Shown here: positions 1,310 to 43,472 of the stretch, in pieces
Layout of the letters: every line of letters starts with the position of its first letter
How positions within the stretch are numbered: position 1 is the stretch's first letter
IMG/VR virus record: IMGVR_UViG_3300025132_000044
Span: 1-57,283 of that record
Length of the DNA stretch: 57,283 nucleotides
Reading direction: 5' to 3' (one strand)
DNA from: a virus
Lineage: Duplodnaviria; Caudoviricetes
Translations under genes and position numbers: made by a program
The notes under the pieces: generated by a model
The model's input: only the letters and a program-made list of their open reading frames with translations
Told to the model about the DNA's origin: nothing
The model's database searches: none

Positions 1310-1757
1310 TACACTTGAAAATATAACTATTAGATTACCAGAATTAAATTATTTTCAACAGTTATTATATAAAGATAAAATATCATATTTTTTAGAATTA
1401 TTCGAAACTACAATACATTCAACAAATTTTTCTAGCACAACATTACAAGAAGGATTACAAGACTTTTTTAACGAAATATCAGAAGATGAATATGATGAAA
1501 TGCCATTTTTTGAAAGTTATGATATCAATGCTGGAAATAATACTAATCGTGTAGATATTCTTGTTGATAGAGAAAATTTAGTAGTTGAATCTAATAGTTT
1601 AAAAGCAGTACGAAGTATTCGAGATAAATTTTTAGATAATGGATATTTATTAATGCGTGATAAGATTGATGAAAAATTATTTCGCAATGGAAAAATAACA
1701 AAATACCTTAGGGTATATAAAATCATAGGTAGGGCATCCCACTTATGTTATAATTGA
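1302..1757 (+). CDS. hypothetical protein (start likely ATG 1302)
   Basis: ORF track 1284..1757; in-frame ATG at 1302 overlaps the end of the 54-aa ORF. Confidence 0.65.
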   Translation: MYNTLENITIRLPELNYFQQLLYKDKISYFLELFETTIHSTNFSSTTLQEGLQDFFNEISEDEYDEMPFFESYDINAGNNTNRVDILVDRENLVVESNSLKAVRSIRDKFLDNGYLLMRDKIDEKLFRNGKITKYLRVYKIIGRASHLCYN

Positions 1758-1828
1758 GATACGGTAGGTCTCAAAAATTAAATTAATAACGGTTAGCTAA
1801 TGCAACCATAAAACACAGGAGGTTTAAA

Positions 1829-2242
1829 ATGACACATTTTAAAGAAACATTATTACTCAATGATTTCGATTTAGTTTGGAAAAACTTTTTCGATCAAACA
1901 TCTAAATTTTTACCGGTAACATCAAATAAAATGAATTATCCAGTTGATATATTTACAACGGATACTGGAATACAGTTTGAAATTGCTGCAGTAGGTTTAG
2001 AAAAATCTGATATTGAAATATTAACAGAAGGAGAAACGTTAAGAGTTCGATATAACAAAGACAAAGAAGAAAAACGTGAATTTATTCACAAAGGAATCGC
2101 AAAAAGAGCTTTTGATTTTGCTTGGAAAATATCTAAAGAATTAGATTTAACTAAAGCAGGAGCAAAAATGGAAAAAGGATTGTTAGCAATTGATATTCCA
2201 TATGCTAAAGATAGAGCGCCAAAGCGTTTAACAATAAAATAA
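1829..2242 (+). CDS. hsp20: small heat shock protein Hsp20 (alpha-crystallin domain)
   Basis: YPVDI...FEIAAVGLEKSDIEI...FIHKGIAKRAF...AKMEKGLLAIDIP...PKRLTIK; strong SD CAGGAGG at 1816-1822. Confidence 0.93.
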   Translation: MTHFKETLLLNDFDLVWKNFFDQTSKFLPVTSNKMNYPVDIFTTDTGIQFEIAAVGLEKSDIEILTEGETLRVRYNKDKEEKREFIHKGIAKRAFDFAWKISKELDLTKAGAKMEKGLLAIDIPYAKDRAPKRLTIK

Positions 2243-2247
2243 GTTAT

Positions 2248-2451
2248 ATGAGACCTACCAACTCATTATGTTTTCTACCAACTATAGAATTTCAAAATAA
2301 AAGATTTAATGTTCGTAGATTAGTTAAAGAAGATCCAGATGAAAATATTGAATTTTGGAAATCATTAATTGATCATGATATTGTATTACGTAAAGATGGT
2401 TATTTATGGTTTTTAATTGAAATTTCAGATGCAGAAATTATTGAAGAATGA
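2248..2451 (+). CDS. hypothetical protein
   Basis: 67-aa ORF with ATGA overlap to the next gene. Confidence 0.6.
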   Translation: MRPTNSLCFLPTIEFQNKRFNVRRLVKEDPDENIEFWKSLIDHDIVLRKDGYLWFLIEISDAEIIEE

Positions 2452-2948
2452 AAAAGAAAAAATTACCTAAATATGTTCAAGATATATTTAAAAAACAACA
2501 ATTTAAAATTGGAGACACTGTTAAGTGGGAATTCTTAGGTGAATCTGGATGGGGTATTGTTAAAAAAATATTAAAAGCAAATGATAAAATTACTTACATG
2601 GTTAAAACAGGCAAGTATACGTATCCTTGCGGTATTCAAATCAAAGAATACTCGAGCTACTATGCCGGATCAATCGACTATGAGACTTCAAAAAATAGAT
2701 CAAATAATGTCAAAGCCGGAGTTTCAACAACTAAAACACGAACTAGTAATAAAGCAAGGAAACGACTTTCTGGATCTGATAGCAACCCAATATCAAATAC
2801 AAGATCTAACAGTAGGTCAAAGAATGATACTAGGAATGGCCATGGACAACACATTAAAACAGATTCAAGAAGCACAACAACAATTAAAACAACAGAATTA
2901 GATAATGAATTTGAAAAACAGAAAAATTTTCTGCGCAGATTTACATAG
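2448..2948 (+). CDS. hypothetical protein with N-terminal SH3/KOW-like beta domain and S/T/R/N-rich tail
   Basis: FKIGDTVKW...GIVKKI...YMVK pattern; low-complexity C-terminal half. Confidence 0.6.
   Translation: MKKKKLPKYVQDIFKKQQFKIGDTVKWEFLGESGWGIVKKILKANDKITYMVKTGKYTYPCGIQIKEYSSYYAGSIDYETSKNRSNNVKAGVSTTKTRTSNKARKRLSGSDSNPISNTRSNSRSKNDTRNGHGQHIKTDSRSTTTIKTTELDNEFEKQKNFLRRFT
2707..2901 (+). CDS. possible overprinted helical protein nested in 2448..2948
   Basis: Alternative frame open 2581..2901; MSKPEFQQLKHELV... is non-repetitive and amphipathic. Confidence 0.35.
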   Translation: MSKPEFQQLKHELVIKQGNDFLDLIATQYQIQDLTVGQRMILGMAMDNTLKQIQEAQQQLKQQN

Positions 2949-26836: not shown

Positions 26837-27781
26837 ATGAAGAACTTAAAACTACTTCAATTATTGGAATCTGTTCTAGGAAAAGGAAAACAAACATCTG
26901 GAGATAATATTGCATTTTTTTCGCCATTTACTTCTCATTATAAACCTAAATTAGAAATTAATATTAATACAAATTCAGATGGACAAAATCCATGGCATTG
27001 TTGGATATCTGATAAAAAAGGAAGATCGATACATTCATTATTTAAACAATTAAAATTATCAAAAGATAAATTTGAAAAATTAAATAAAATAATTGAAAGA
27101 TCTAAGTATAGAAATACTGCTAGTATAAAAGAAACTGAAGAAGTAATACAATTACCAGATGAATATAAGCCATTATGGTTAAAACAAAATACTCCAGACT
27201 ATCGTAATGCAATGTATTATTTAAAAACTAGAGGTATAACATTATTTGATATAATTAGATATAGAATTGGATATGCAGAATCAGGAGCATATTCTGGCAA
27301 AATTATTATTCCTAGCTATGATTCATCCGGTCAATTAAATTATTTTGTATCAAGAGCGTTTTATAAAAATGATCCATATAAACATAAAAATCCTAAAATA
27401 TCAAAAGACATTATTGGATTTGAAATGTTAATTAATTGGAATGAACCTATTATATTATGCGAAGGCGCATTTGATGCAATCACAATTAAAAGAAATGCAA
27501 TTCCACTATTTGGTAAAATAATTAATCCAATGTTACAAATAAAAATTATAGAAGAACATGTTAAAGATATTTACATATGTTTAGATCAAGATGCATTTAA
27601 AAACGCAATGGATATAGCAAAAACATTTATGGCAGAAGGATTAAATGTTTATTTTATAAAATTAGAAACAGAAGATCCTAACGAATTAGGATACAAAAAA
27701 ATTACTGAAAAAATTCAAGATACTTACAAGTTTTCATTTGAAGAAATGATGACACTGGAAATAAACTCATTATGGAAATAA
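26837..27781 (+). CDS. DNA primase (DnaG/gp61-like, TOPRIM)
   Basis: YLKTRGI...IGY...IIIP...YFVSR...ILCEGAFDA...IPLFGK...ICLDQDA...DPNE. Confidence 0.9.
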   Translation: MKNLKLLQLLESVLGKGKQTSGDNIAFFSPFTSHYKPKLEININTNSDGQNPWHCWISDKKGRSIHSLFKQLKLSKDKFEKLNKIIERSKYRNTASIKETEEVIQLPDEYKPLWLKQNTPDYRNAMYYLKTRGITLFDIIRYRIGYAESGAYSGKIIIPSYDSSGQLNYFVSRAFYKNDPYKHKNPKISKDIIGFEMLINWNEPIILCEGAFDAITIKRNAIPLFGKIINPMLQIKIIEEHVKDIYICLDQDAFKNAMDIAKTFMAEGLNVYFIKLETEDPNELGYKKITEKIQDTYKFSFEEMMTLEINSLWK

Positions 27782-30700
27782 AAACACTAAAAACAAATAT
27801 TCAATCAATTGATAAAATATTTCATATATCTGATATTCATATTAGGACATTAAAACGACACAAAGAATATCAAGAAGTATTTGATACATTATTTTTACAT
27901 ATTGCTCAACATGCAACGGATCAAAGTATTTGTGTAGTAACTGGAGATATAGTACATTCTAAATTAGATATGTCGCCAGAATTAATTAACATGCTAACAA
28001 AATTCTTTAATGGATTTCATATTCCAACAATTGTAATATTAGGTAATCACGATATGAATTTAAATAATTTATATAGATTAGATGCTATATCGCCAATATT
28101 AGATGTTATTGATAATACAAATATATACTTTATAAAAGAAAATGGGTTATTTAAATTTGCAAACGTTGTATTTAATCATATGGCTGTTGATGTAGCTCCA
28201 AAAGACTATATTCAAGCTAAAGACTTCGATGCTCATTATAAAGTAGCATTACATCACGGAGCTGTACATAACGCAAAAACAGATATTGGATTTCAAATAT
28301 CAAATGATCATGTTACAACAGATTTATTTGAAGGACATGATTTAACATTATTAGGTGATATACATAAGCCTGCACAATTCTTAAACAAAGAAAAAACAAT
28401 TGGATATCCTGGATCATTAATACAACAAAATCATGGAGAAGCACTTAATCACGGCATATTAGTATGGGATTTACCAGATCGATGTTCAGAATTTATTGAA
28501 ATAGAAAATAAATATGGATATGTAACCTTTGAGGTAGATAATGGTAAAATTATTAATTCTCCTAAACGTGTTCCTAATAAACCTAGAGTACGAATTAAAT
28601 TTAATGATACTGATGCATCTGATATTAAAAAGTTAATTGCAACTATTAGAAAAAAATATAAAGTTCAAGATATATCTATACAACGATCTGCAAATCATAT
28701 TGATAATAATCAAAATGGATCAATTGCAATTGGAAATGTTAGAGATGTAGAACATCAAAATAATTTAATAACAACGTTTATTGAAGATAATTATCCAGAA
28801 GCAGATAAAAAAGAATTAGATGCTATACGACATATTAATAGAACAATTAACTCAAAACTGCCAATACTAGAATCTGTAAGAAATGTAACATGGCATCCAA
28901 TATCATTTGAATTTAATAATATGTTTTCATATGGCGAAAATAATAAAGTAGATTTTTCAAAATTATCTGATGTTATAGGATTATTTGCAGCAAATGCATC
29001 AGGTAAATCATCACTTTTAGATGCAATAACATATACAATATTTGATAAATGTAGTAAAACAAGTAAATCAAAAGAAGTTTTAAATAATAAAAAGTCTGGA
29101 TTTAAAGGAGTATTTAAATTTATGTTAAACAATAAATTATATACTATCGAGCGAGAAGGAATAACATTAAAACATGGCCATGTTAAAGTAAATGTAAATT
29201 TTTACAATGAAGATCAAAATTTAAATGGAGAAGAAAGAAGTGATACAAATAAAAGTATTAGAAGATATTTAGGAACGTACGATGATTTTATTTTAACTGC
29301 ATTTTCATTACAAGCAGATAATAATAATTTTATAGAAAAATCTCAAAGAGAACGAAAAGATTTATTATCACAATTTCTTGATACAACAGTATTTGAACAA
29401 CTATACCATTTAGCATCAGAAGAAATAAAAGAAACTTCTGGTAAATTAAAAGAATATAAAAAAACTGATTTTGGTTTAATTATACGTGAATCGGATGATA
29501 TAATTTTAAAAAATCAAGATAAAATTATTGAATTGGAAAAAGGAGATACTGATTTACAAGAATCAAGAAATAATCTACAAAATCAAATAGTAGAATTAAT
29601 TGAGTCTAAACAACCAATGTCATATGATGGTCCAAATATCAAAAAACTACAACAAGATGAATCATCTTTAATTAAAGAAATTGAAGATATAGATATTAAT
29701 TGTAATTCATTAGAAAATAAAATTAATAGTAATAAATCTAATATATCATCATATCAAACAACAATTAATAAAGATCAATTTGAAAAAATATCAAACGAAT
29801 TATCAGATATTATTAAGAAAAAAGATGTAATATCAAATGAAATAAGTACATTAACAAGTTTAATAACTTCACAAAAAAAGAAAATAGATCATTTAAAAAC
29901 TCATGAATATGATGATACATGTAAATATTGTATTGAAAATATATTTGTTAAAGATGCATTAGAAGCAAAAAGATTACTTCCTGGAAATGAATTACATTTA
30001 AAAAATAAAATAGGAGCAGCTGAATTCTTTCAACAACGTATTGATAGATTAAATTCTTCAATTCATGAATATCAAGAAAAAATAAATTTAAAAAATAAAA
30101 TTGAAAAATTAGAATTACAATTACAAATTTTAGAAAGCGATATACAAACAAAAGAATCAGAATTAGAAACTAATGCTGAACGACAAGAATTATTTCGAAA
30201 AAATGAATCAGCTATTACTTATAATGAAACTATAGATAAAAAAATAGAATCAAAAAAGAAATTAATTTCTGAAACCACAACGTTAATAAAAGATATTACA
30301 GATAAAATTAAATCAAATCACGGAGAAATAGAAGTTGCTAAAACACAAAAGAAAACAGCATTAGAACAATTGGATACATATAAACAATTAGAAACTGAAT
30401 ATAAAGCATATGAATATTATTTACAATCTGTAAAGCGTGATGGTGTTCCTTATGAATTAATTAAAAAAGCGTTACCTAAAATTGAAACAGAAATAAACAA
30501 TGTATTAAATCAAGTAGTAGATTTTAATATGGTGTTAAATACAGATGGTAAAAATATTAACGGATATATTATATACGACGAAGATAATTTCTGGCCATTA
30601 GAATTAACATCTGGTATGGAAAGATTTATATCATCATTAGCAATTCGTGTAGCATTAATTAATGTTTCTGCATTACCAAGACCAAATTTTATAGCTATTG

Positions 30701-30882
30701 ACGAAGGTTGGGGTAGTTTAGATAGAGAACATATTTCTGCAGTTACTAATTTATTTGAATATTTTAGAACCAAATTTGATTTTTCTATCATTATATCGCA
30801 TGTCGAATCAATGAGAGATATGGTAGATAACTTAATTGAAGTAAATAAGATTAAAAATTTCAGCCAGATTCTACATACATAA
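27772..30882 (+). CDS. fused SbcD/Mre11 nuclease - SbcC/Rad50 ATPase (gp47-gp46-like)
   Basis: ISDIH, TGD, GNHD, GDIH; Walker A ANASGKSS, coiled coil with CKYC hook, SGME signature, IDEGWGSLD, IISH. Confidence 0.92.
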   Translation: MEIKTLKTNIQSIDKIFHISDIHIRTLKRHKEYQEVFDTLFLHIAQHATDQSICVVTGDIVHSKLDMSPELINMLTKFFNGFHIPTIVILGNHDMNLNNLYRLDAISPILDVIDNTNIYFIKENGLFKFANVVFNHMAVDVAPKDYIQAKDFDAHYKVALHHGAVHNAKTDIGFQISNDHVTTDLFEGHDLTLLGDIHKPAQFLNKEKTIGYPGSLIQQNHGEALNHGILVWDLPDRCSEFIEIENKYGYVTFEVDNGKIINSPKRVPNKPRVRIKFNDTDASDIKKLIATIRKKYKVQDISIQRSANHIDNNQNGSIAIGNVRDVEHQNNLITTFIEDNYPEADKKELDAIRHINRTINSKLPILESVRNVTWHPISFEFNNMFSYGENNKVDFSKLSDVIGLFAANASGKSSLLDAITYTIFDKCSKTSKSKEVLNNKKSGFKGVFKFMLNNKLYTIEREGITLKHGHVKVNVNFYNEDQNLNGEERSDTNKSIRRYLGTYDDFILTAFSLQADNNNFIEKSQRERKDLLSQFLDTTVFEQLYHLASEEIKETSGKLKEYKKTDFGLIIRESDDIILKNQDKIIELEKGDTDLQESRNNLQNQIVELIESKQPMSYDGPNIKKLQQDESSLIKEIEDIDINCNSLENKINSNKSNISSYQTTINKDQFEKISNELSDIIKKKDVISNEISTLTSLITSQKKKIDHLKTHEYDDTCKYCIENIFVKDALEAKRLLPGNELHLKNKIGAAEFFQQRIDRLNSSIHEYQEKINLKNKIEKLELQLQILESDIQTKESELETNAERQELFRKNESAITYNETIDKKIESKKKLISETTTLIKDITDKIKSNHGEIEVAKTQKKTALEQLDTYKQLETEYKAYEYYLQSVKRDGVPYELIKKALPKIETEINNVLNQVVDFNMVLNTDGKNINGYIIYDEDNFWPLELTSGMERFISSLAIRVALINVSALPRPNFIAIDEGWGSLDREHISAVTNLFEYFRTKFDFSIIISHVESMRDMVDNLIEVNKIKNFSQILHT

Positions 30883-30908: not shown

Positions 30909-33900
30909 ATGAAGAAAGCTATAGCTAATTTACAGAACTTAGATCGTTTAGATACATATATTACAGATACATCATTATTATCTCCTAATATATTTAATAT
31001 TACACTTTTACCTGATAAATTAACATTAGGTAAAAATTTATTTAAATTAAAAGGAGTACCTAATATATTTCAACCAGGTACTGATTTACAAATTGAAATT
31101 TTAGATTCTAATGGTAATCCAATTTATCATGAAGTGGTTAATAAAATTGATCCAGATAATTCAAGATTTATTGCAATTTATATTTATGACAATACTCCAA
31201 GTGGAGATTGTTTAATAACATTAGCTGCAACATTAGATTCATATAATAACGAATCAATTCCTGCGAGTTGGAGAAATATTGTTAATGCAAAATGGAGTGT
31301 AACTACTCCAGTCGATACAAAATCACCTAATGTAAATAATATTATATTTGATTCATTAAATTTACCAGAAGCAACCGTTTCAGAACAAATTGGAGTACGT
31401 TTAGATAGACAATATAATGATAATACTCAATTTCCAATTTTTTCAGATGGATTAATTGAATTTGAAACCAAAGAAAATTCATCTATAGCAAAAATAACTG
31501 GAGGAGAATTTAGACCAGATATGGTTGGAGGAACATTAACAGTTACATCGCCAGTAAATCCTACACCGTTATCAACTATACCAACATCTTCTGCTAGAAT
31601 ATATTCTTCTACTATTAAAAAAGTATTAAGTAAAGATTTTATACAATTAGATAATAAATTTGTATTTACATTAAGTCAAAGTTTATCTCAACATCAATAT
31701 ACAAAATTTGATCCATCTTCATATACTATAGAATATGAAGCAGCTCCAAATTATATAGGTACCCAACATTCTGAATCATTTGCATTAACTGAAATTACAA
31801 AATTAGATCCAGCAATTGGGGATATTTCAAGAATTAAATTATATATTAATAGTTCAGCAACAATTGGAACATTTGAATTAATTAATGATATCTTATTAGA
31901 ACCAACTGAAATATTTGTAGATGCAACTGGATCAATATTACCAGATGTTGGAGTTGGTTTTTTTACATCTCAAAGCATTATTGATGAATATTGGGAATCA
32001 CATACATATATTGGAAAAACAGAAGATGGTGCGCCTACATTAACATTTACAACAAGCTCATTAAATAATGCTGTTTCAATATTACCTTCGATTGATTATT
32101 CAAATGATGATAGTGTTTTAATATTTCAAACAAAAGAATCATTACCAGGAGTATTTGTAGAAAATTCTGAATATAAAATAATCTTTGACGCAATTGCAAC
32201 AAAAAATTCTTTAAGTAATTTTCAATCTCCTAAACTTTCAATATATTTATCAGGCTCATCTTTTTTTAATGATGTTGTAAATACATTAAACGGAGCTTTA
32301 CCAGTATCATTAGGAAGAAAAATTGGTGAACTAGTAATTGATGCTAATCAACAGCGATTAGATGATCAACAATTTGTATTTAATGCTGATAAAACAGGTA
32401 ATGGATCTTTATTATTTGTTATAGAATCTGGAGAATGGCAATTTTCAGATATTAGAACATTGACATCAGCTGAAAATGGATTCACAGAAAATTATACAAG
32501 ATTTAGAACAGATATACCAGTAAAACATAAATCAAATAATGAGTTACAATTTAAAATAGAATATTATAATATAGCTGGTGTTAAAAGTGAACATGAAACA
32601 ATTATAGGAAATAAAGTATTTGAAGGAGGAAATCGTTATATCGACGGCGATTTTTCAATGTTAACTGGTTCATTAACCGTAGCAGATTCTTTAAATTCAG
32701 GTGTTGAAATTGTAGGACTTCAAAATACTGGATATATTAGATCATTAGGATATGAAGGATTTAATCAAGCAACCGGGTCTGGAGGAGGATTTTTATTATT
32801 TTCAGGATCTGCTTTACCACAACAGTCAGAAACATCATATAGTGGAGTTGGTTTAGAATTAGTTGCAAACGAAAATAATTTTTTTAAATATAGAACAGAT
32901 CCTAGTATATTAGACATACATACACAAACATTCTTTTTAGGAAATGAAGCAACTCAATTCATAAGTGGATCTGCAGGACAATTAGAAATATCTTCTTCAG
33001 GATATCATATACAAAATAACGGAGATATTACAGCTTCTAGAATATTAATTGAAGGCGGTACTATAACAGATAATGTAACAATTTTAGGATCTGTCTCTGC
33101 TAATAGTATATTAACACCAGCAATAATTAATGGAAATCCTTCAAACGAAAATAATGCATCTTCATCAATTTCAGATCAAGGATTTGCAAGATTTGTATCT
33201 GCATCTATTGCAGGGTTTGTTGTTAATACTGAAGAAATAAAATCTGCAGATGAATCATTAAGATTAAAATCAGAAGGTCAAATAACGGCATCAAGAGTTT
33301 TATTAGAAGGAGGAACAATAACAGATGGAGTAACAATTTTAGGATCTGTTACAGCAAATAGTATTCAGACTCCAGCTACAATAGGAGGATCTCCTTCAAC
33401 TCCAGCAAATGCATCATCTTCTATATCTTCTACCGGACTTGCAATATTTAAGTCTGCATCAATTGGTGGATGGGATATAACAACTGGCTCAATTGAAGGC
33501 GGTAATCTTATAATGAAACCCGAAGGTATATTACAAACAAAAGATTTTGCTAGTGGATTTAAAGGATGGAAAATATCATCACAAGGAAATGGTACTGCAG
33601 AATTTGAAAATGTAAGAATTAGAGGTACCTTAAGAACAACTACATTTGAAAAAGAATCAGTTAATGCTATTGGAGGACAAGTTTGGGTTGCAAATGCAAC
33701 TACAATAACAGGATCGGGAGTTGCAGCTACTGATACTACGATGTCAGTAAAAAATGCTAGTGGATTTGCTGTTGATGAAATATTATTAGCTAAAAAAGTT
33801 GATTCAACCGGATTTCAGACAGAATATTTACTAGTTGAATCTGCTTCATTAGATGGAGATAATTCAAATGAAGATGAAGTGTTTGGTAGAATATATGTTC

Positions 33901-36900
33901 AGCGTGGATATGGATCTGGTAGTGGTGGTGACTTTGTAGGTGACTTAGCTTCAACATCACAATCATATGATGAAGGACAAGTTATAGTATCAACAGGAAA
34001 AATTGGTACTGGGTATATTAAGATAAATGCAAATCCTAATGACACTGATACTCCATTTATTGATATTGTTGAAAGAACTGGTAGTGGATTATATGATGTA
34101 CAATTGAAAGCAAGATTAGGAGATCTTAAAGGATTAGCTAATTCTGATAGAGTATTCGGAAATTCAAATCCAGGCTTTGGATTACAAACAGATAATGTAT
34201 TTTTGCAAGGAGGTATTAGAGCTAATACAGGTTCTATTGGAGGAATACATTTAGAAGATAATAAATTATATATTGGAGTTGGAAACCATGCAAACGCAGA
34301 TACTGGATTTTATGTTGATTCTAGTTCTAAATTTTCATTAGGAGATAAATTAACATGGGATGGGTCTGCATTAACTGTACGAGGGCAATTAAGATTAGAT
34401 TCAGGACAAAATGTACAAGATGCTATTAATGAAGCCACTGCTTCAAATACAGCAAAAACATTAGTTTTAACTTCAGATTCACAAATTTTTGCATTTGAAA
34501 GTGCAAGTGATAGCACAGCAGATCCAACTAATATTATATTTAAAATAGCTCAACAGAATTTAAATGCTAGTATATCTGCTAGTAATATTACTATTACAAC
34601 CCCCGCAGGAGCAGCTGTTACAAATTTTGATTTTGATACCGGAAGCGTTTCTCCAAATTCATCAGTACCACCGTTATATAGTGGTGTAGTTAGCGGAAGT
34701 TTAACATTTGCAGGAGCTTTGGATGCTGGAGGTTTAAATAGCGATAAAACAAATCTTCCAGTAACTATAGTTGCAACAAGGGATGGATTATCAGACACTA
34801 CAACTATATTCAAAATACAAGGTGGCTCATCTGGGTCTGATGGTGTTAGTGGGCAAAGTGCTAAATCATTAGTAGCATCTGTAGATTCTCAAGTATTTGC
34901 ATTTGATAGCGCTAGTGACAATACAGCCGATCCATCAAATATTATATTTAGTTTTAATCAACAAAACTTAACAAGAGCATTAGCATCAACAGATGTACAA
35001 GTTAAAACAGCTGGAGGTTCTGATATAACTGGATTTAGTTTTGATAATAACAGTATAACAAGCGGAACAGGTATAGTTAGTGGTAGTATAGTATTTGCAA
35101 GTGCATTAGGTAGCGGAGGTGTAGGAGCAGATAAAGCAAATCTACCAATAACAATTACAGCTAGTTTAGACGATTTAACAGATATTATAAAAGTATTTAA
35201 AGTTCAAGGTGGATCATCTGGTTCTGATGGTACAGACGGTACAGATGCGGTAACAGCATTTTTAACCAATGAAGCTCATACATTTGCGTCATTAAACAAT
35301 GGAACAATCGTTTCATTTACAGGAGGAACTTCAGATATGGAAGTATTTGAAGGTATTACAAATGTTACTGCAAATTACACATTCACCGGATCTAATTCAG
35401 ATGGTGTTACCGCAACTAGTTCAAGCAATAGCCTTACTATAACTGGAATGAGTTCTGATAGCGGATCTATTAACTTTACTGCAAAATCAGCGAGTGTTAG
35501 CTTAACCAAAACAATGACATTGGCTAAATCTAAACAAGGAACACAAGGACTATCAGGAGCAAATGCTAAATTATTAACAGTAACGTCAGACTCACAAGTA
35601 TTTTCATTTCCATCTGCGTCATCCAATACACCAATTGATAATGATATATTGTTTATAATTAATCAACAAAATTTATCAACAGAAATTGATAGTTCTGAAA
35701 TTTCAATTACTACACCAGGAGGATCTGCAATAACTGGCTTTTCATTAAAAACTGATGTGGCAAATAATTCTGGATTATTTACAGGTGAAGTTTCTGCTAG
35801 CATTTCATTTACTGGTGCAACGGATGCAGGAGGATTAAATTCAAACAAATCAAATTTACCGTTAACTATCACAGTATCATCTGGATCATTGAATGACACA
35901 ACAAAAATCTTTAAATTAGAAGGAGGAAGTTCAGGTTCAGACGGAACAGACGGAACAGACGGAGTTACAGCATTTTTAACTAATGAATCTCATACTTTTC
36001 CAGCAGATCAAACTGGTACAATTGCATCATTTGCTGGTGGAGAAACAGAAATGGAGGTTTTTGAAGGTATTACAAATGTTACTACAAATTATACCTTTAC
36101 AGGATCTAATTCTGAAGGAGTAACTGCTACCAGTTCAAGTAATAGTTTAACAATTACAGGATTATCAAAAGATTCTGGATCAGTTAATTTTACAGCTAAA
36201 TCCGCTAGCGTATCAATTACTAAGACAATGTCGTTAGCTAAATCCAGACAAGGTCAATCTTCAATAACTGCATTTTTAACTAATGAGTCCCAAACATTCC
36301 CAGCTAATTCATCTGGTGTTGTTTCTAGTTTTGCTGATGGAACAACTATAATGGAAGTATTTAATGGACTAAATAATGTAACTTCCAGCTTTGCATTTAC
36401 TGGATCAAATACAGACGGAGTTACAGCAACTAGTTCTAGTAATGAAATACAAGTAACCGGAATGGCACATGATTCTGGTTCTATAACATTTACAGCAAAA
36501 TCTGGATCAGGTGACGGATTAGTTTCAATTTCAAAAATATTTTCATTAGCTAAATCAAGAGCTGGAGTAGACGGATCAGGTGCAAGTGCCAGAATGTTAT
36601 CAGTAACAACAGATTCTCAAATATTTTCATTTGCGTCTGCATCATCAGATATTGCATTAGATGATGATATATTAATAATAATTAATCATCAAAATTTAAC
36701 TAGTTCACCATTACCAAGTGATATTACAATAAAAGATTCAAATGGTACTACCATAACAAATCCTACATTTGTTTCATCATCCACATCAGGCACTGGTCAA
36801 GTTTCTGGTAGTATAACATTTAGTAGTACATTGAGTGGTACTAAAAGTAAATTGCCTATAACAATTGAAGCGTCAAAAGATTCTGTTAGTGATATAACAA

Positions 36901-39900
36901 CAGTATTTGGACTTAATGGAGGTTCAGATGGTACCGACGGAGTAAATGGGGCAACTGCTAAATCATTAATAGCGTCTGTCGACTCACAAGTATTTTCTTT
37001 CTTAAGTGCAAGTGATAGCACAGCAGATCCAACTAGTATTATATTTAGCTTCAATCAACAAAATTTAAATGCGGCTATTGATAGTTCTGATGTCACAATA
37101 TCAACTGCTGGCGGAAACGTTACAAATTTTGATTTTGATAATAATAGCGTAACAAATTCAGGAGGTAATTTTAGTGGTATAGCATCTGGTAGTATATCAT
37201 TTGCTGGAGCGTTGGATGCTGGAGGATTATCATCTACAAAAACAAATCTGCCAGTAACTATATCAGCTACAAAAAATAGTTTAACAGATACAATAAAAAT
37301 ATTTAAAGTTCAAGGTGGATCATCTGGATCAGATGGAAGCGATGGAAGCGATGGTACTGATGCTGTAACTGCATTCTTAACTAATGAAGCTCATACATTT
37401 GCAGCACAAAATAACGGTACTGTTGTATCATTTACAGGTGGTACTACTGATATGGAAGTATTTGAAGGTATAACTAATGTAACTTCTAATTACACGTTCA
37501 CCGGATCTAACTCAGACGGCGTTACTGCAACAAGTTCTAGTAACTCATTAACAATTACAGGTATGAGTCATGATAGTGGATCTGTTAATTTTACTGCAAA
37601 ATCTGCTAGTGTTAGTCTAACAAAAACTATGACACTAGCAAAGTCAAAACAAGGTACACAAGGTTTAAGTGGAGCAAATGCTAAATTATTAACAGTTACA
37701 TCTGATTCTCAAGTATTTGCATTTCCGTCTGCATCTTCAAATGATGCTGTTGATAACGATATTTTATTTATAATCAATCAACAAAATTTATCAACAGAAA
37801 TTGATAGTTCAGAAATATCTATAACAAATCCTGCAGGATCAGCAATAACCGGATTTTCATTAAAAACCGATGTAGCAAATAATTCTGGTTTATTTACCGG
37901 AGAAGTTTCAGCAAGTATTACTTTTACAGGAGCTACAGATGCCGGCGGATTAAATTCAGACAAATCAAATTTACCATTAACTATCACAGTAACATCAGGA
38001 TCATTAACAGACACTACTAAGATTTTTAAATTAGAAGGCGGTTCTTCAGGGTCAGATGGATCTGATGGCGCTGCAGGATCTGATGGCGCTGATGCGGTAA
38101 CTGCATTTCTTACAAATGAAGCACATACCTTTGCCGCAGATCAGGCTGGAAATATAGCTTCGTTTGCTGGTGGTACCACTGACATGGAAGTATTTGAAGG
38201 CATTACAAATGTTACTGCAAATTATACATTTACTGGTTCAAACTCTGAAGGAGTTACCGCAACAAGCTCAAGTAATAGTCTTACTATAACTGGGTTATCA
38301 CAAGACTCTGGATCTGTTAATTTTACTGCAAAATCTGCAAGTGTATCAATTACTAAGACAATGTCTCTTGTAAAGTCTAGGCAAGGGCAATCTGCAATAA
38401 CTGCATTTTTAACTAATGAGTCCCAAACATTCCCAGCTGCAGCTAATGGAACTATATCTGACTTTTCTGTTGGTACAACAACAATGCAGGTATTTGAAGG
38501 ATTAACAAATGTAACATCTAGCTTTGCATTTACAGGTTCAAATTCTGATGGAGTAACTGCTACTAGTTCTAGTAATGAAATTCAAATTACTGGTATGTCT
38601 CATGATTCTGGTTCTATAACTTTTACTGCAAAATCTGGATCTGGTGATGGATTAGTGTCAATATCAAAAGTATTTGCATTAGCTAAATCAAGAGCAGGTA
38701 CAGATGGTACTCCTGGTTCTAGTGCAAAATTAATTACATTAACAACCGATTCTCAAATATTTTCATTTCCATCTGCATCTAGTAGCGATGCTATTGATGA
38801 TGATATACTATTTATTATAAATCAACAAAATTTAGATTCTGCAGTTGTAACTGGTAATATTACTATAAAAGATTCAGGAGGATCGACATTAACTAATCCT
38901 AGTTTAGAAACAGACGTTACATCAGGAACAGGTCAAGTATCAGGTAGTATTACATTTAGTGGTACAGTTGGAGGAGATAAAACTAAACTTCCTTTAACAA
39001 TTGAAGTAGCTCGTGATAGTGTTAGTGACACAACAAGAATTTTTAAATTAGAAGGAGGTTCATCTGGATCAGACGGATCAGACGGATCAGACGGACAATC
39101 AGCAATAACTGCGTTTTTAACTAATGAATCTCATACATTCCCAGCTGCAGCAAACGGCACTGTTCCAGACTTCTCTACTGGAACTAGTGATATGATCGTG
39201 TTTTTAGGTTTAGATAATGTTACATCTAATTTTACATTTACTGGATCTAATTCTGATGGTGTTACTGCTACAAGCTCAAGTAACTCATTAACTATTACAG
39301 GAATGAGTCACGATTCGGGATCTATTAATTTCACAGCAGTTAGTGCAAGTGTTAGTTTAACTAAAACAATGAATTTAGCTAAATCAAAAACAGGCGAAAC
39401 TGGATCTACTGCTAAAACATTAACATTAACAACTGATTCTCAAATATTTTCATTTTTATCTGCTTCATCTAACGATGCAATTGACGATGATATATTGTTT
39501 ACAATTAATCAACAAAATTTATCAGGAACAATTGGAAGTGGTGATATAACAATATCAACAGCTGGTGGAGTTCCTACTCTTATTACTAATTTCTCATTAG
39601 ATAATAACAGTGTTACATCTGGGACAGGAATTGTATCTGGAAGTTTAACCTTTACGGGAGCAACAAATGCAGGAGGATTAAATTCAACAAAAAGCAATCT
39701 TCCAGTAACAATTACTGTAACAAAAGACAGCTTAACAGATACAACTAGAATTTTTAAATTAGAAGGCGGATCATCTGGATCAGATGGATCAGATGGAGCT
39801 GCTGGAGCAGACGGAGCTCCTGCGGTAACCGCATTTCTTACAAATGAAGCTCATACATTTCCTGCAGATGTTAATGGAACTATTTCTAGTTTTACCGAAG

Positions 39901-42900
39901 GTAGTTCATCAATGGTTGTTTTTGTTGGACTTGAAAATTCAACATCTAGTTTTAGTTATTCAAAAACAGATAGTACAGGAGTTACCTCAACATTATCTGG
40001 AACAGATGGAAATATAATAGCTATATCTGCCATGGCTCATGATTCTGGATCTGTTGATATAACTGCAACTAGTGCAAGTGTTAGTGTTACTAAAACAATG
40101 ACTCTAGCAAAATCAAAACAAGGTGCTCAAGGAACCGCTGGAGCAACTGGTGCTACTGGTCCCAATTTTGATTTTTTAACTGGATCTATATCTGAAATTA
40201 ATACTCAAGGAGGATTAAATGCAGGATTGTTAATGACTTCTGATGTATTAGGATTTCATGGTAATATTTCTGCAGGAGATGGAACCAATGCAAAAGTAAC
40301 TGACTTTATATCATTTTTAGACTCATCTGGTAATTTCTTTATAGGATCACAATCATCAGGACATTTTGCATATTCTCAAGCAACTGGAGAATTATTAATA
40401 AGTGGATCAAATGTTGATATAAGAACTCCTAAATTCTTTTTAGGACAAGAAAATGTACAATTTATATCTGGATCTGATGCAAAAATAGAAATATCATCAT
40501 CTAATTTTCATTTAACTCCTGAAGGCAATGTTACCATGTCTGGAACAATCACAGCAACAGCTGGTACTATTGGAGGATTTGAAATAACTGATACTCAAAT
40601 TAATTCTTCAAATGATAATTTAATTCTAAAATCATCAGGACAAGTAACTGCATCTACGTTATTATTAACTGGAGGATCTGTTGCCGGTATGCCAGTTAGT
40701 TCTGATGAAATATCAGTAGGAAGTGTTTTAAAATTAAAAGATTCTGGTCAAATAACTGGATCAAAAGTATTATTTAGTGGTGGTACTATTGGAGGATTTG
40801 ATTTAACATCAACTCAAATTAATTCTACTAATAACAATTTAATATTAAAAGACTCTGGCCAAATAACTGGATCTAATGTGTTATTCGATGGAGGAACAAT
40901 TGGAGGATTTAACATTTCTAGTGATGCTATTTCAGATACAAGCAATAATCTTGTTTTATCAGGTTCAGGTAAAATTACTGCTAGTGCTGGATTAATAGGA
41001 GGATTTGATTTAACGTCTGGAGAATTACGAGGAGGAGTTGAAAATCAATCGTATATAAGTCAATCTACATCAATAACACTTGTTTCTGGAAGCTTTCAAG
41101 GTCAGGTTCAAAATAACAAAAACAGTATTGGAGGAATTTCTCAAATTAGCACTAATGCAACAAATTTTGAAGGAGTTTTAGATCCAGCAACAATTGTAAA
41201 TACTACAACTAATCCTAGTGCATCTGAAGATGTTTTTGTAGTTGCTTTTGCTGAAGGTGCTTATGTTAATGCGTTTACCAACACTGCAACATCTGCAGCA
41301 ACTAGCATAGCTAAAGTAGCTGGATTTTCTAATTTAGAAGCCGGTCCTGTTGAATTTAGCCAAGTTTCATTAGACGGATTTACAGGAAATGCAGTAGATA
41401 CTTGCAATTTCAATTTTATTACTAGTACTGCAGCAACTCCACTGACTCCGGACGTATTTAATCCATCATCTGGATATGAATCATCTTCAGTTATAAATCA
41501 TAGTTTAACTAGAACACTTACAAAAATAAAATTAGATTCTGATAATAGATCAATATCAATTAACACTTCTAGTTTTGGAAGTGATGGAATACAACTAGAA
41601 GTAGATTCAAGTACAAATCGTCCAAGATTTTTTGCAGGATCTAATACAGGAAGTTTTTTCAAATATGATGGTACAGATATTGCAATTTCAGCTTCTAATT
41701 TTAGTGTATTAGACGGAGATATAACTGCAAATCGAATAGAATTAGCAGAATATTCTAAAGCTGATTATTTTGTATTTAAATTAATAACAATAACAGAAGC
41801 AACATCAGGTTCTTATTTTGAAGAATATACTTTAAGTGGCGACACATATTATAAATTAGTATTAGATGGAACATTAGGAGGATCTATAGCACAGTCTGTT
41901 AGAATAAATGTAACTCCAGAATATCCAATTGGAATGATACAACCTCCTGTAAAATTGAATAATCAAGGACATGAAGTAACAATTGAATCTGGAATTGGTA
42001 CTGGAATTGGTTATTCATCAAGAGTTGCAGTTAGTGGAAGTAATATATATAGTTACGGATTTTCAGCTGATAATGATGATTGGTTCAATCAATTATTTCA
42101 AACGAGAGTTTATCCAGCTGGCGGAAGTACTACATATGGAGGCGGTAGCGTAGGAGATCTAGGAGCATCTGCAGGTCGTGTAATGGTACAAAACATAGGT
42201 CAACGATTTAAATTTGTTAGATCAGCATTTGATTTTAGATTATTAGGAATATCAAGTTATGATACTACAGCAGATGGAAACTTTAATTCACAAGGATTAA
42301 TAAATTTCTTTTCAGGACTTCGTGCAAGTAATGGTCCTATAGGAATTGGAATTACTGGTACTAACAAAATGACTGCAGGTTATGCTTTAGAAGTTAACAA
42401 TATTGTTGATAGAGCTGGAACTACTACCGATGATGTATTATTTCATGGTAATGTAAGTGGTAGTGTATTTTCTGGATCTTTTGTTGGAGACGGATCAGGA
42501 TTAACCGGAGTATCAGGTGGCGGTGGTGGTAGTGGTGATATAACAGCTGTTACAGCCGGCAATGGATTAACAGGCGGAGGAACAACAGGAGCGGTATCAT
42601 TAGCAGTAGGAGCTGGTACGGGTATAGACGTTACTTCTACAACTGTTGCGGTTGATGTATCTGATTTCATGAGTAATGGTTCTAATAACAGAGTAGTTAC
42701 TGCTACCGGAGCAGACGGAATGAATGCCGAAGCTAACATGACATTTGATGGTACTAATTTATTAGTTAGCGATGATACAGCAGGAGCATATGCAAATATT
42801 GGTAGAACAAGAGTTGGTTATACAGCTTATACTGATTATGCACACATTTCACATAGAGATTTAACATCTGCAGGAGAATATGCATTATTACAATCTGCTG

Positions 42901-43472
42901 CAGGAGATACATTTATAAATGCTAAAAGTGGCAAAACACTTCATTTACGAATAAATAATTCATCGATAGCTAGTATAACCTCAACCGGATTTAATAATTT
43001 ATATTCAACCGGTAAAATAGGATATGATACAACAGATTATATTACATTCACAAATAATACTAGAATGGATGTTTATATAAATAATAGTAATGAATTTAGA
43101 TTTGAATCAGATGGTGACTTTCATGCTGATGGAGATGTTATAGCATCATCAACTACTGTATCTGATTCTAGATTAAAAGACAATATAATACCAATTGGTG
43201 GAGCGTTAGACAAAATAAAATCTTTAAGAGGTGTTTCATATACATGGAATTCTGGAAAGAAAAAAGGTAAACAAGATATAGGTTTAATAGCACAAGAAGT
43301 AGAAGAAGTATTACCAGAAATAGTTAAAGATAAAAAAATGCCATTAATGGATGGTATAGATTCAAATGAAACATATAAAACTATTGACTATGAAAAAATT
43401 ATTGCAGTACTTGTAGAAGCAGTTAAAGATCAACAAACACAAATAGACGAATTAAAAAGAAAAATTAAATAA
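30909..43472 (+). CDS. giant (4187 aa) tail fibre/receptor-binding protein with C-terminal S74 intramolecular chaperone
   Basis: GFKGWKI...AEFENVRIRG tail motif, 16 internal repeats, GTIGGF repeats, terminal SDSRLKDNI...GLIAQEVEEVLPE...LVEAVKD. Confidence 0.85.
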   Translation: MKKAIANLQNLDRLDTYITDTSLLSPNIFNITLLPDKLTLGKNLFKLKGVPNIFQPGTDLQIEILDSNGNPIYHEVVNKIDPDNSRFIAIYIYDNTPSGDCLITLAATLDSYNNESIPASWRNIVNAKWSVTTPVDTKSPNVNNIIFDSLNLPEATVSEQIGVRLDRQYNDNTQFPIFSDGLIEFETKENSSIAKITGGEFRPDMVGGTLTVTSPVNPTPLSTIPTSSARIYSSTIKKVLSKDFIQLDNKFVFTLSQSLSQHQYTKFDPSSYTIEYEAAPNYIGTQHSESFALTEITKLDPAIGDISRIKLYINSSATIGTFELINDILLEPTEIFVDATGSILPDVGVGFFTSQSIIDEYWESHTYIGKTEDGAPTLTFTTSSLNNAVSILPSIDYSNDDSVLIFQTKESLPGVFVENSEYKIIFDAIATKNSLSNFQSPKLSIYLSGSSFFNDVVNTLNGALPVSLGRKIGELVIDANQQRLDDQQFVFNADKTGNGSLLFVIESGEWQFSDIRTLTSAENGFTENYTRFRTDIPVKHKSNNELQFKIEYYNIAGVKSEHETIIGNKVFEGGNRYIDGDFSMLTGSLTVADSLNSGVEIVGLQNTGYIRSLGYEGFNQATGSGGGFLLFSGSALPQQSETSYSGVGLELVANENNFFKYRTDPSILDIHTQTFFLGNEATQFISGSAGQLEISSSGYHIQNNGDITASRILIEGGTITDNVTILGSVSANSILTPAIINGNPSNENNASSSISDQGFARFVSASIAGFVVNTEEIKSADESLRLKSEGQITASRVLLEGGTITDGVTILGSVTANSIQTPATIGGSPSTPANASSSISSTGLAIFKSASIGGWDITTGSIEGGNLIMKPEGILQTKDFASGFKGWKISSQGNGTAEFENVRIRGTLRTTTFEKESVNAIGGQVWVANATTITGSGVAATDTTMSVKNASGFAVDEILLAKKVDSTGFQTEYLLVESASLDGDNSNEDEVFGRIYVQRGYGSGSGGDFVGDLASTSQSYDEGQVIVSTGKIGTGYIKINANPNDTDTPFIDIVERTGSGLYDVQLKARLGDLKGLANSDRVFGNSNPGFGLQTDNVFLQGGIRANTGSIGGIHLEDNKLYIGVGNHANADTGFYVDSSSKFSLGDKLTWDGSALTVRGQLRLDSGQNVQDAINEATASNTAKTLVLTSDSQIFAFESASDSTADPTNIIFKIAQQNLNASISASNITITTPAGAAVTNFDFDTGSVSPNSSVPPLYSGVVSGSLTFAGALDAGGLNSDKTNLPVTIVATRDGLSDTTTIFKIQGGSSGSDGVSGQSAKSLVASVDSQVFAFDSASDNTADPSNIIFSFNQQNLTRALASTDVQVKTAGGSDITGFSFDNNSITSGTGIVSGSIVFASALGSGGVGADKANLPITITASLDDLTDIIKVFKVQGGSSGSDGTDGTDAVTAFLTNEAHTFASLNNGTIVSFTGGTSDMEVFEGITNVTANYTFTGSNSDGVTATSSSNSLTITGMSSDSGSINFTAKSASVSLTKTMTLAKSKQGTQGLSGANAKLLTVTSDSQVFSFPSASSNTPIDNDILFIINQQNLSTEIDSSEISITTPGGSAITGFSLKTDVANNSGLFTGEVSASISFTGATDAGGLNSNKSNLPLTITVSSGSLNDTTKIFKLEGGSSGSDGTDGTDGVTAFLTNESHTFPADQTGTIASFAGGETEMEVFEGITNVTTNYTFTGSNSEGVTATSSSNSLTITGLSKDSGSVNFTAKSASVSITKTMSLAKSRQGQSSITAFLTNESQTFPANSSGVVSSFADGTTIMEVFNGLNNVTSSFAFTGSNTDGVTATSSSNEIQVTGMAHDSGSITFTAKSGSGDGLVSISKIFSLAKSRAGVDGSGASARMLSVTTDSQIFSFASASSDIALDDDILIIINHQNLTSSPLPSDITIKDSNGTTITNPTFVSSSTSGTGQVSGSITFSSTLSGTKSKLPITIEASKDSVSDITTVFGLNGGSDGTDGVNGATAKSLIASVDSQVFSFLSASDSTADPTSIIFSFNQQNLNAAIDSSDVTISTAGGNVTNFDFDNNSVTNSGGNFSGIASGSISFAGALDAGGLSSTKTNLPVTISATKNSLTDTIKIFKVQGGSSGSDGSDGSDGTDAVTAFLTNEAHTFAAQNNGTVVSFTGGTTDMEVFEGITNVTSNYTFTGSNSDGVTATSSSNSLTITGMSHDSGSVNFTAKSASVSLTKTMTLAKSKQGTQGLSGANAKLLTVTSDSQVFAFPSASSNDAVDNDILFIINQQNLSTEIDSSEISITNPAGSAITGFSLKTDVANNSGLFTGEVSASITFTGATDAGGLNSDKSNLPLTITVTSGSLTDTTKIFKLEGGSSGSDGSDGAAGSDGADAVTAFLTNEAHTFAADQAGNIASFAGGTTDMEVFEGITNVTANYTFTGSNSEGVTATSSSNSLTITGLSQDSGSVNFTAKSASVSITKTMSLVKSRQGQSAITAFLTNESQTFPAAANGTISDFSVGTTTMQVFEGLTNVTSSFAFTGSNSDGVTATSSSNEIQITGMSHDSGSITFTAKSGSGDGLVSISKVFALAKSRAGTDGTPGSSAKLITLTTDSQIFSFPSASSSDAIDDDILFIINQQNLDSAVVTGNITIKDSGGSTLTNPSLETDVTSGTGQVSGSITFSGTVGGDKTKLPLTIEVARDSVSDTTRIFKLEGGSSGSDGSDGSDGQSAITAFLTNESHTFPAAANGTVPDFSTGTSDMIVFLGLDNVTSNFTFTGSNSDGVTATSSSNSLTITGMSHDSGSINFTAVSASVSLTKTMNLAKSKTGETGSTAKTLTLTTDSQIFSFLSASSNDAIDDDILFTINQQNLSGTIGSGDITISTAGGVPTLITNFSLDNNSVTSGTGIVSGSLTFTGATNAGGLNSTKSNLPVTITVTKDSLTDTTRIFKLEGGSSGSDGSDGAAGADGAPAVTAFLTNEAHTFPADVNGTISSFTEGSSSMVVFVGLENSTSSFSYSKTDSTGVTSTLSGTDGNIIAISAMAHDSGSVDITATSASVSVTKTMTLAKSKQGAQGTAGATGATGPNFDFLTGSISEINTQGGLNAGLLMTSDVLGFHGNISAGDGTNAKVTDFISFLDSSGNFFIGSQSSGHFAYSQATGELLISGSNVDIRTPKFFLGQENVQFISGSDAKIEISSSNFHLTPEGNVTMSGTITATAGTIGGFEITDTQINSSNDNLILKSSGQVTASTLLLTGGSVAGMPVSSDEISVGSVLKLKDSGQITGSKVLFSGGTIGGFDLTSTQINSTNNNLILKDSGQITGSNVLFDGGTIGGFNISSDAISDTSNNLVLSGSGKITASAGLIGGFDLTSGELRGGVENQSYISQSTSITLVSGSFQGQVQNNKNSIGGISQISTNATNFEGVLDPATIVNTTTNPSASEDVFVVAFAEGAYVNAFTNTATSAATSIAKVAGFSNLEAGPVEFSQVSLDGFTGNAVDTCNFNFITSTAATPLTPDVFNPSSGYESSSVINHSLTRTLTKIKLDSDNRSISINTSSFGSDGIQLEVDSSTNRPRFFAGSNTGSFFKYDGTDIAISASNFSVLDGDITANRIELAEYSKADYFVFKLITITEATSGSYFEEYTLSGDTYYKLVLDGTLGGSIAQSVRINVTPEYPIGMIQPPVKLNNQGHEVTIESGIGTGIGYSSRVAVSGSNIYSYGFSADNDDWFNQLFQTRVYPAGGSTTYGGGSVGDLGASAGRVMVQNIGQRFKFVRSAFDFRLLGISSYDTTADGNFNSQGLINFFSGLRASNGPIGIGITGTNKMTAGYALEVNNIVDRAGTTTDDVLFHGNVSGSVFSGSFVGDGSGLTGVSGGGGGSGDITAVTAGNGLTGGGTTGAVSLAVGAGTGIDVTSTTVAVDVSDFMSNGSNNRVVTATGADGMNAEANMTFDGTNLLVSDDTAGAYANIGRTRVGYTAYTDYAHISHRDLTSAGEYALLQSAAGDTFINAKSGKTLHLRINNSSIASITSTGFNNLYSTGKIGYDTTDYITFTNNTRMDVYINNSNEFRFESDGDFHADGDVIASSTTVSDSRLKDNIIPIGGALDKIKSLRGVSYTWNSGKKKGKQDIGLIAQEVEEVLPEIVKDKKMPLMDGIDSNETYKTIDYEKIIAVLVEAVKDQQTQIDELKRKIK
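34446..40124 (+). repeat. 16 intragenic domain repeats of two types (AABABB AABABB ABAB)
   Basis: Type A begins AK.L....DSQ(I/V)F.F.SAS (8 copies); type B begins TAFLTNE(A/S)(H/Q)TF (8 copies); GSSGSDG linkers. Confidence 0.9.

Follow-up and report, generated by a model that had tools for sequence, protein, structure and literature searches.

Why should a small heat-shock gene of a phage be bracketed by two sites that are complementary to each other? This question is raised by the hsp20 gene in a DNA fragment of a virus assigned to the Caudoviricetes (Duplodnaviria; IMG/VR record IMGVR_UViG_3300025132_000044). The window, i.e. the whole stretch of DNA analyzed, comprises 57,283 nucleotides (57 kb), which is approximately 34% of its virus record, and has a G+C content of approximately 27%. 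The gene (1829..2242) is located on the plus strand, as are the other elements of the locus described below. It codes for 137 amino acids and was assigned by its match to Pfam HSP20 (E 3.2e-11) and by protein alignments (A1 and A3). Upstream of it, the 11-mer GGTAGGTCTCA (1763..1773) is the exact reverse complement of positions 2249 to 2259, which follow the gene. This arrangement had been reported in an initial annotation, and on re-reading the sequence the coordinates of the 11-mer pair, of the hairpins at both sites, of a second leader hairpin and of a -10-like element were all found to be correct. Conservation, covariation and predicted folding make it very probable that these sites pair with each other in the sense transcript as a long-range RNA helix, and that this helix is real and under selection.

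Both the minimum free energy (MFE) structure and the centroid structure predicted for positions 1750 to 2275 contain the helix (z = -6.3). Eleven base pairs between the core strands (1763-1773 and 2249-2259) are followed by a 4x2 internal loop and by eight pairs between an outer 5' strand (1750..1758) and an outer 3' strand (2262..2269), the latter being paired with 1750-1754 and 1756-1758 while U1755 is bulged. For this composite duplex, a duplex calculation with RNAduplex gave -24.7 kcal/mol, compared to -8.6 kcal/mol for both local hairpins summed. Of the pairing across the hsp20 message that had been proposed, the 5'-3' interaction was thus retained but not a mere kissing of two loops, since in the predicted ground state the pairing runs on as one continuous helix, with 8-9 outer base pairs added to the 11 bp of the core. 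The core 5' strand is made up of the 3' part of the loop and the 3' arm of the local hairpin H1 (1754..1774; TTGAGAT/ACGGTAG/GTCTCAA, with arms at 1754-1760 and 1768-1774 and the loop at 1761-1767). H1, whose innermost pair is T-G, has -6.2 kcal/mol when folded alone. H1 and the long-range helix cannot form together; in H1 the 5' strand is hidden. The core 3' strand begins six nucleotides past the hsp20 stop codon and overlaps a weak local hairpin, H3 (2248..2266; ATGAG/ACCTACCAA/CTCAT), which has a 5-bp stem and a 9-nt loop and reaches only -2.4 kcal/mol when folded alone. By eye, the H3 stem shifts its register and covaries among relatives (GAG/CTC, GAGA/TCTC, GAGA/TCTT, AAGA/TCTT). The pair probability of the core strands was 0.98-0.99 in the window. 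In all 45 full-length representatives of the related loci, the mean pair probability of the core helix amounted to 0.85-1.0, at 15 and 37 °C alike.

Could the complementarity have arisen by chance? In the window, one inverted pair of 11-mers with at least six G/C lies within 600 nt, whereas 200 dinucleotide shuffles contained 0.105 such pairs on average. Since 6% of the shuffles harbored at least one, the pair is borderline when judged from the window alone. If up to two mismatches were allowed, the motif was not enriched (four found versus 4.7 expected). Of 50 open reading frames (ORFs) in the window, no other one possesses a comparable GC-containing bracket. That the pair exceeds chance is concluded from the related loci, in which the helix has been kept.

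Relatives were found with the Hsp20 protein and with protein alignments. They comprise 285 hsp20-bearing loci of uncultured aquatic phages from IMG/VR and metagenome contigs; from the 382 relatives present in IMG/VR alone, each scan retained the best 80. After removal of 16 loci with short flanks and collapsing of identical flanks, 159 distinct flank pairs remained. The 100 nt preceding the start codon were compared with the 85 nt past the stop codon, and a helix was scored if it had at least 9 bp, G.U pairs allowed, and a weighted score of at least 22. Helices of 9-19 bp between leader and 3' flank were present in 156 of the 159 loci, but in only 29 of 477 shuffled downstream flanks (6%), and the median score was 30 for the real pairs compared to 17 for the shuffled ones. 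Among the 156 loci there are 84 distinct helix sequence pairs. Including the outer pairing, the median length of the composite duplex is 20 bp, and 137 of the 156 loci reach 18 bp or more. Counted from the start codon, the median start of the 5' strand is -68 (range -84 to -37), and the helix ends at least approximately 25 nt upstream of this codon. The 3' strand always lies past the stop codon, with a median distance of 7 nt (range 3-46). The enclosed loop has a median of 481 nt; in the window it contains the leader hairpin H2, the ribosome-binding site and the whole hsp20 cistron.

In the marine clade, whose Hsp20 proteins are 64-100% identical, the 11-mer pair of the window is nearly invariant, and the core 3' strand is unchanged even where it is non-coding (L026, L027, L158-L164). 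Distant clades have swapped both strands together, as illustrated by ATGACAGGTCTTC with GAAGACCTGTCAT, GGTGGACTGGA with TCCAGTCCACC and AACGTACTAAGTGGGCG with TGCCCACTTAGTACGTT. The three loci that failed are L097 with a premature stop codon, L170 in which the 3' element and the downstream gene have been replaced, and L198 in which a mismatch splits the helix. Conservation across the hsp20 flanks, on which the initial annotation had made its proposal depend together with covariation, is present in the related loci, and so is covariation.

Covariation was analyzed with A2, a MAFFT alignment of 45 rows and 747 columns. For the ten core long-range pairs, 84.1% of the cells were paired, compared to 30-50% when the partner was slid, and seven of the ten pairs vary on both sides. 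Double changes occurred in 41 cells versus 19.9 +/- 3.4 after shuffling, and none of 500 shuffles reached the score. MAFFT sets the 3' strand one column off register in part of the rows. With register-guided counting, the loop-derived positions revealed G-C in 28, A-U in 16 and U-A in one case, and U-A in 26, C-G in 15 and U.G in two cases, respectively. The summed score of the cognate partners was 1112, that of permuted partners 863 +/- 24, and none of 10000 permutations attained the cognate value. H1 has covariation support as well: 88.8% of its cells were paired, all four stem pairs change on both sides, and none of 500 shuffles reached its score. Because H1 covaries on its own, selection is taken to act on both H1 and the long-range helix, which exclude each other, with the caveat that the four arms are mutually consistent by design. 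The second leader hairpin H2 (1791..1807; GGTTAGCTAATGCAACC), which consists of 4 bp, the bulged A1795, 2 bp and a tetraloop, was paired in 97.7% of the cells with all six pairs compensated, and again none of 500 shuffles reached the score; it is absent from sister clades. An inner helix of ATAAC before H2 and GTTAT after the stop codon was considered as well and dropped, as no covariation between the two was seen by eye.

Does the element act as RNA or as DNA? The initial annotation had left room for a DNA operator pair or recombination sites. In such a case, the sites could be operators, inversion or recombination sites or the terminal repeats of a mobile hsp20 cassette, and their complementarity would be due to descent or gene conversion. 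The 3' element indeed resembles the reverse complement of the entire 5' hairpin, which suggests an inverted duplication, and the unit from the promoter to the 3' element is found in varied neighborhoods. Moreover, the heat-shock operators HAIR and CIRCE are inverted repeats 3' of a promoter. However, a conserved inverted-repeat operator consensus was not found: the 84 different helix sequences across the relatives exclude a conserved host operator, and a host operator is unlikely because the motif sequence is not conserved across clades. Within the marine clade, the asymmetric center is conserved better than the arms. Nor is the motif repeated elsewhere. In a complete relative of 173 kb, the 10-mer (up to one mismatch) occurred solely at the two hsp20 flanks, and the same was true for three partial genomes. 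Identical crossover cores are absent, as many loci have G.U-type differences, bulges and indels between both copies. The flipped arrangement, for which the outside-upstream flanks were compared with the reverse-complemented outside-downstream flanks, was detected in none of the 156 loci, and the spacing varies between 486 and 505 bp. The mismatches themselves favor the sense strand. Among single internal non-Watson-Crick positions in 77 registers, 15 were G.U, two A.C and five other on this strand, and all 3'-strand variants facing one unchanged 5' strand are G.U-compatible transitions. Judging from these patterns in the sequences, we read the element as an RNA structure of the sense transcript and regard a function at the DNA level, disfavored by the unique motif, the G.U-type differences and the lack of flips, as extremely unlikely.

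If the element is RNA, does it sense temperature? Small heat-shock genes often carry RNA thermometers, and the initial annotation had drawn the analogy to the ROSE type. A thermometer or a kissing-loop switch would set the translation of hsp20 according to temperature. Two alternative structures do exist, and in the subclade of the window the hsp20 start codon is enclosed by an AU-only hairpin of 9 bp (1823-1831/1835-1843), which is present in the MFE and the centroid structure and whose conservation, judged by eye, does not extend to other clades. Yet the Shine-Dalgarno (SD) sequence AGGAGG (1817..1822) lies outside of the long-range helix and is essentially unpaired in the MFE structure, and some members possess no SD sequence at all. 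The analogy is not supported, since the helix is clear of the start and the pairing is the same at 15 and 37 °C. A search of Rfam with the window (1600-2500) revealed no family explaining the region at E <= 10, neither ROSE nor another thermometer family. As the helix avoids the SD sequence and the predicted pairing is not temperature-sensitive, a thermometer is very unlikely. The heptamer AGGAGGT occurs six times in the window, the site at 1817 being one of them.

What, then, might the helix do? It would mark the 3' boundary of an autonomous hsp20 cassette and tie both ends of the message together. As proposed initially, the downstream hairpin holds the start of the next ORF: the ATG at 2248, which abuts or overlaps the 3' strand of the helix, opens a small ORF of 67 amino acids (2248..2451). 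In the window, the pairing would bury this start codon, and translation of the ORF would depend mostly on ribosomes that terminate six nucleotides upstream, at the hsp20 stop codon, and melt the helix. The paired ends may shield the message from end-dependent decay or may offer a duplex of approximately 20 bp to the RNase III of the host. In clades with a spacer and a U-tract after the 3' strand, the same helix could act as a terminator stem. For a role of the helix in boundary setting, stability and gating, we consider the chances to be evenly balanced; a real helix that also has the proposed role is the overall explanation towards which we lean slightly. The overlap with a start codon is not restricted to the window. 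In 45 of the 156 loci the next start codon overlaps the 3' strand and in 17 it follows within 1-8 nt, which makes 62 loci including the window. The 67-amino-acid ORF had no match in Pfam, PHROGs and the ESM Atlas. It is conserved and follows hsp20 in several clades, with an ATG or GTG start embedded in the 3' strand of the helix. In the window, the start occupies the 5' end of this strand; in L286, L289 and L290 it occupies the 3' end.

The duplex itself may be the functional feature, as in an RNase III processing stalk, in which the host enzyme would cut the duplex of approximately 20 bp and free a monocistronic hsp20 mRNA from longer transcripts. The stalks of rRNA processing and the early mRNAs of T7 are RNase III-processed analogues. 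At the hsp20 loci, the median of 20 bp stated above corresponds to about two helical turns between the flanking strands, a length that suits RNase III, and internal loops interrupt the duplex, as in the window. RNase III is reported to cut long-range intramolecular mRNA structures in Bacillus subtilis (PMC11780869) and the 5'-3' duplex of the icaR mRNA (PMC3868564). The similarity lies in strands that are hundreds of nucleotides apart and form a duplex of about two turns bracketing a functional RNA unit; the hsp20 element differs in that its contiguous core helices have only 9-19 bp and that the bracket encloses exactly one protein-coding cistron. Short core helices speak against a stalk, and the U-tracts described below would be left unexplained by it. 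Furthermore, neither in G000 nor in the complete G001 was a phage gene for RNase III or a dsRNA-binding domain (dsRBD) detected. A processing stalk is possible but unlikely.

The U-tracts deserve consideration with regard to termination. A tract of at least six T in eight positions follows the 3' strand in 49 of the 156 loci, the window included, compared to a background of 2%. Where the next gene is 26-60 nt away, which is the case in another set of 49 loci, the tract directly follows the 3' strand in 30 of them. The stable local GC-rich hairpin that precedes the U-tract of an intrinsic terminator was not found. For the 49 U-tract loci, local folding of the 3' side gave a median of only -1.5 kcal/mol versus -26.4 kcal/mol for the long-range duplex, and in the window the local fold reached -2.1 kcal/mol. 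Since no local hairpin precedes the tracts, the long-range helix is a possible terminator stem. Such a split intrinsic terminator would have its upstream arm in the 5' leader and its downstream arm, together with the U-tract, behind the stop codon, and H1, which has its own covariation support, would be the antiterminator. This explanation has to be weighed against the 107 loci without a U-tract; the window possesses only GTTTTCT (2270..2276), a weakly terminator-like tract directly 3' of the composite helix and inside the next ORF. The U-rich stretches may, by eye, also be AT-rich spacers or degenerate complements of the AU-rich H1 arm, the kinetics of pairing across 480 nt are doubtful, and a literature search on long-range terminators yielded none with a gene-sized loop. 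We therefore judge a split terminator to be unlikely. That the locus harbors a gene-sized split terminator with a built-in antiterminator, for which stopping or reading on would be set by the capture of the 5' strand by H1, by the transcript start and by a ribosome on the stop codon, is possible but unlikely.

Whether H1 can form may depend on the transcript start. The extended -10-like element TGTTATAAT (1746..1754) abuts H1 and is a putative hsp20 promoter. It was not listed in a scan for consensus promoters because there is no -35 element. Of 58 loci of the marine clade, 49 have the sequence TGnTAnnnT ahead of the 5' strand, 8 nt before GGTAGG in 23 and 11-27 nt before it in 25 loci. If the element is used, transcription would start at approximately 1759-1763, inside H1, according to the sequence. 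Some transcripts may thus lack the 5' arm of H1, which would suit an antiterminator. Similar leaders have been described for T4 gene e and I-TevI, in which hairpins contain an internal late promoter and hide the ribosome-binding site of the gene itself (PMC3014915). By analogy to these genes, transcripts from the -10-like promoter may lack the H1 5' arm. What the systems appear to share is a promoter that abuts a hairpin's 5' arm or lies within it, so that long and short transcripts would fold differently. At the hsp20 locus, however, H1 would hide the 5' partner of the long-range helix instead of a ribosome-binding site, and the start site is predicted, with a distance of 8 to 27 nt for the -10 element. 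Just 5' of this element, a third partial copy of the core, GGTAGG (1727-1732), was seen in the closest relatives only; next to it there is a GGG/CCC hairpin (1729-1742), which was scanned as terminator-like on the minus strand.

Other known systems were compared as well. In the icaR mRNA of Staphylococcus aureus, the 5' leader pairs with a region behind the stop codon, resulting in a double-stranded segment, and translation is blocked by pairing of the 3' motif to the Shine-Dalgarno region (PMC3868564). Pairing between leader and post-stop region is likewise indicated for hsp20 by covariation and predicted folding. There are three differences. The hsp20 helix leaves the SD sequence free, so that the anti-SD feature was not found; its 3' strand is located 3-46 nt past the stop codon whereas the icaR motif lies deep in a long 3' untranslated region (UTR); and the element is carried by phages and shows covariation across 84 sequence variants. 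The hsp20 locus resembles intrinsic terminators and phage 'moron' cassettes in being an autonomous unit of promoter and gene, followed in part of the hsp20 family by helix and U-tract, but the stem of the hsp20 element is formed with the 5' leader across approximately 480 nt and is not a local GC hairpin, and U-tracts do not occur in all loci. Promoter-early stem-loop (PeSL) cassettes of T4-type phages are repeated many times per genome in direct orientation. Like these cassettes, the locus shows a promoter beside a stem-loop flanking a small accessory gene in a large myovirus. By contrast, the hsp20 motif was found solely at the hsp20 flanks (in the 173-kb genome and the three partial genomes) and its halves are complementary. 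Literature searches on phage hsp20, inverted repeats, RNase III and cyanophage hsp20 transcription gave nothing describing this element. We conclude that the closing helix of hsp20 is a new conserved RNA element that is probably message-bounding.

Several results weigh against a sense-strand helix that bounds the message. With distinct contexts and a wider extension, the G.U bias of the mismatches is weaker (11 G.U, four A.C, 14 other), and the duplex energies of wide flanks did not differ between sense and antisense (-29.3 and -28.6, p = 0.14). Only in 12 of 45 rows and 13 of 45 columns did the cognate partner rank first or share the first rank, which is explained by close variants pairing equally well. 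RNAalifold applied to A2 recovered only H2, neither H1 nor the long-range helix. The lineage L170-L172 has lost the 3' strand. In 91 of the 156 loci more than 8 nt separate the helix from the next start codon, and U-tracts are limited to the 49 loci mentioned. The lack of an RNase III or dsRBD gene in the two genomes belongs here as well. Both the hsp20 promoter and the start site are predicted only, and the data from RNA libraries consist of four short contigs of low depth (1311-1571, 1717-1907, 2131-2363 and 2181-2331), which perhaps derive from DNA and contain no ends. A further Logan contig from an RNA library covers positions 1393-1638; the contigs give no ends, strand or joints.

L170-L172 have retained the 5' strand and the hairpin, but the 3' strand and the downstream gene have been swapped for a gene with its own SD sequence; this is a natural loss of the bracket. 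Among isolated phages with distant Hsp20 proteins (27-36% identity), no 5'-3' complementarity was found in the three examined of 181 records, HTVC008M, ACG-2014i and S-SCSM1. By eye, an ordinary GC hairpin with a T-run follows hsp20 in these three phages. In Synechococcus phage ACG-2014i (L166), the annotated translational repressor gene regA is located immediately 5' of hsp20. A nucleotide search of INPHARED gave no match. In six relatives searched with Rfam at the gathering threshold, the sole match was an unrelated permuted tmRNA. This two-piece tmRNA (RF04321; 62 bits, cut-off 47) lies at L082:554-713, approximately 750 nt 5' of hsp20. As such two-piece molecules typically occur in alphaproteobacteria and a few further groups, the one in L082 may hint at the host. 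In the freshwater clade (L031-L084), the motif AGTT(A/T)(T/C)G is found after the 5' hairpin, where it often opens a mini-ORF of 2-5 codons, and again behind the 3' element, where it provides the ATG of the next gene; in this clade, the hsp20 stop codon is immediately followed by TAAGTTTTGAAA.

Beyond the locus, the window encodes baseplate wedge, portal, large terminase and primase proteins. One ORF on the plus strand (30909-43472) comprises 4187 amino acids. Another one (27772-30882; 1036 amino acids) matches SbcD-like PHROG families in its N-terminal and SbcC-like families in its C-terminal part, from which an apparent SbcD/SbcC fusion can be deduced.

For long-range pairing in bacterial and phage messages, there are few worked examples, and comparative support is rare. 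At the hsp20 locus, a helix spanning the cistron of a single accessory gene has persisted in uncultured phages of marine and freshwater habitats although its sequence was replaced independently dozens of times. Annotation pipelines that are restricted to local hairpins miss such elements. The family is a natural system with built-in compensatory mutants, in which effects of end-to-end pairing on stability, 3'-end formation, processing and coupling to the next gene can be studied. If it is true that the members with a U-tract terminate on a stem formed with the leader, this would be a new terminator design, able to be conditional.

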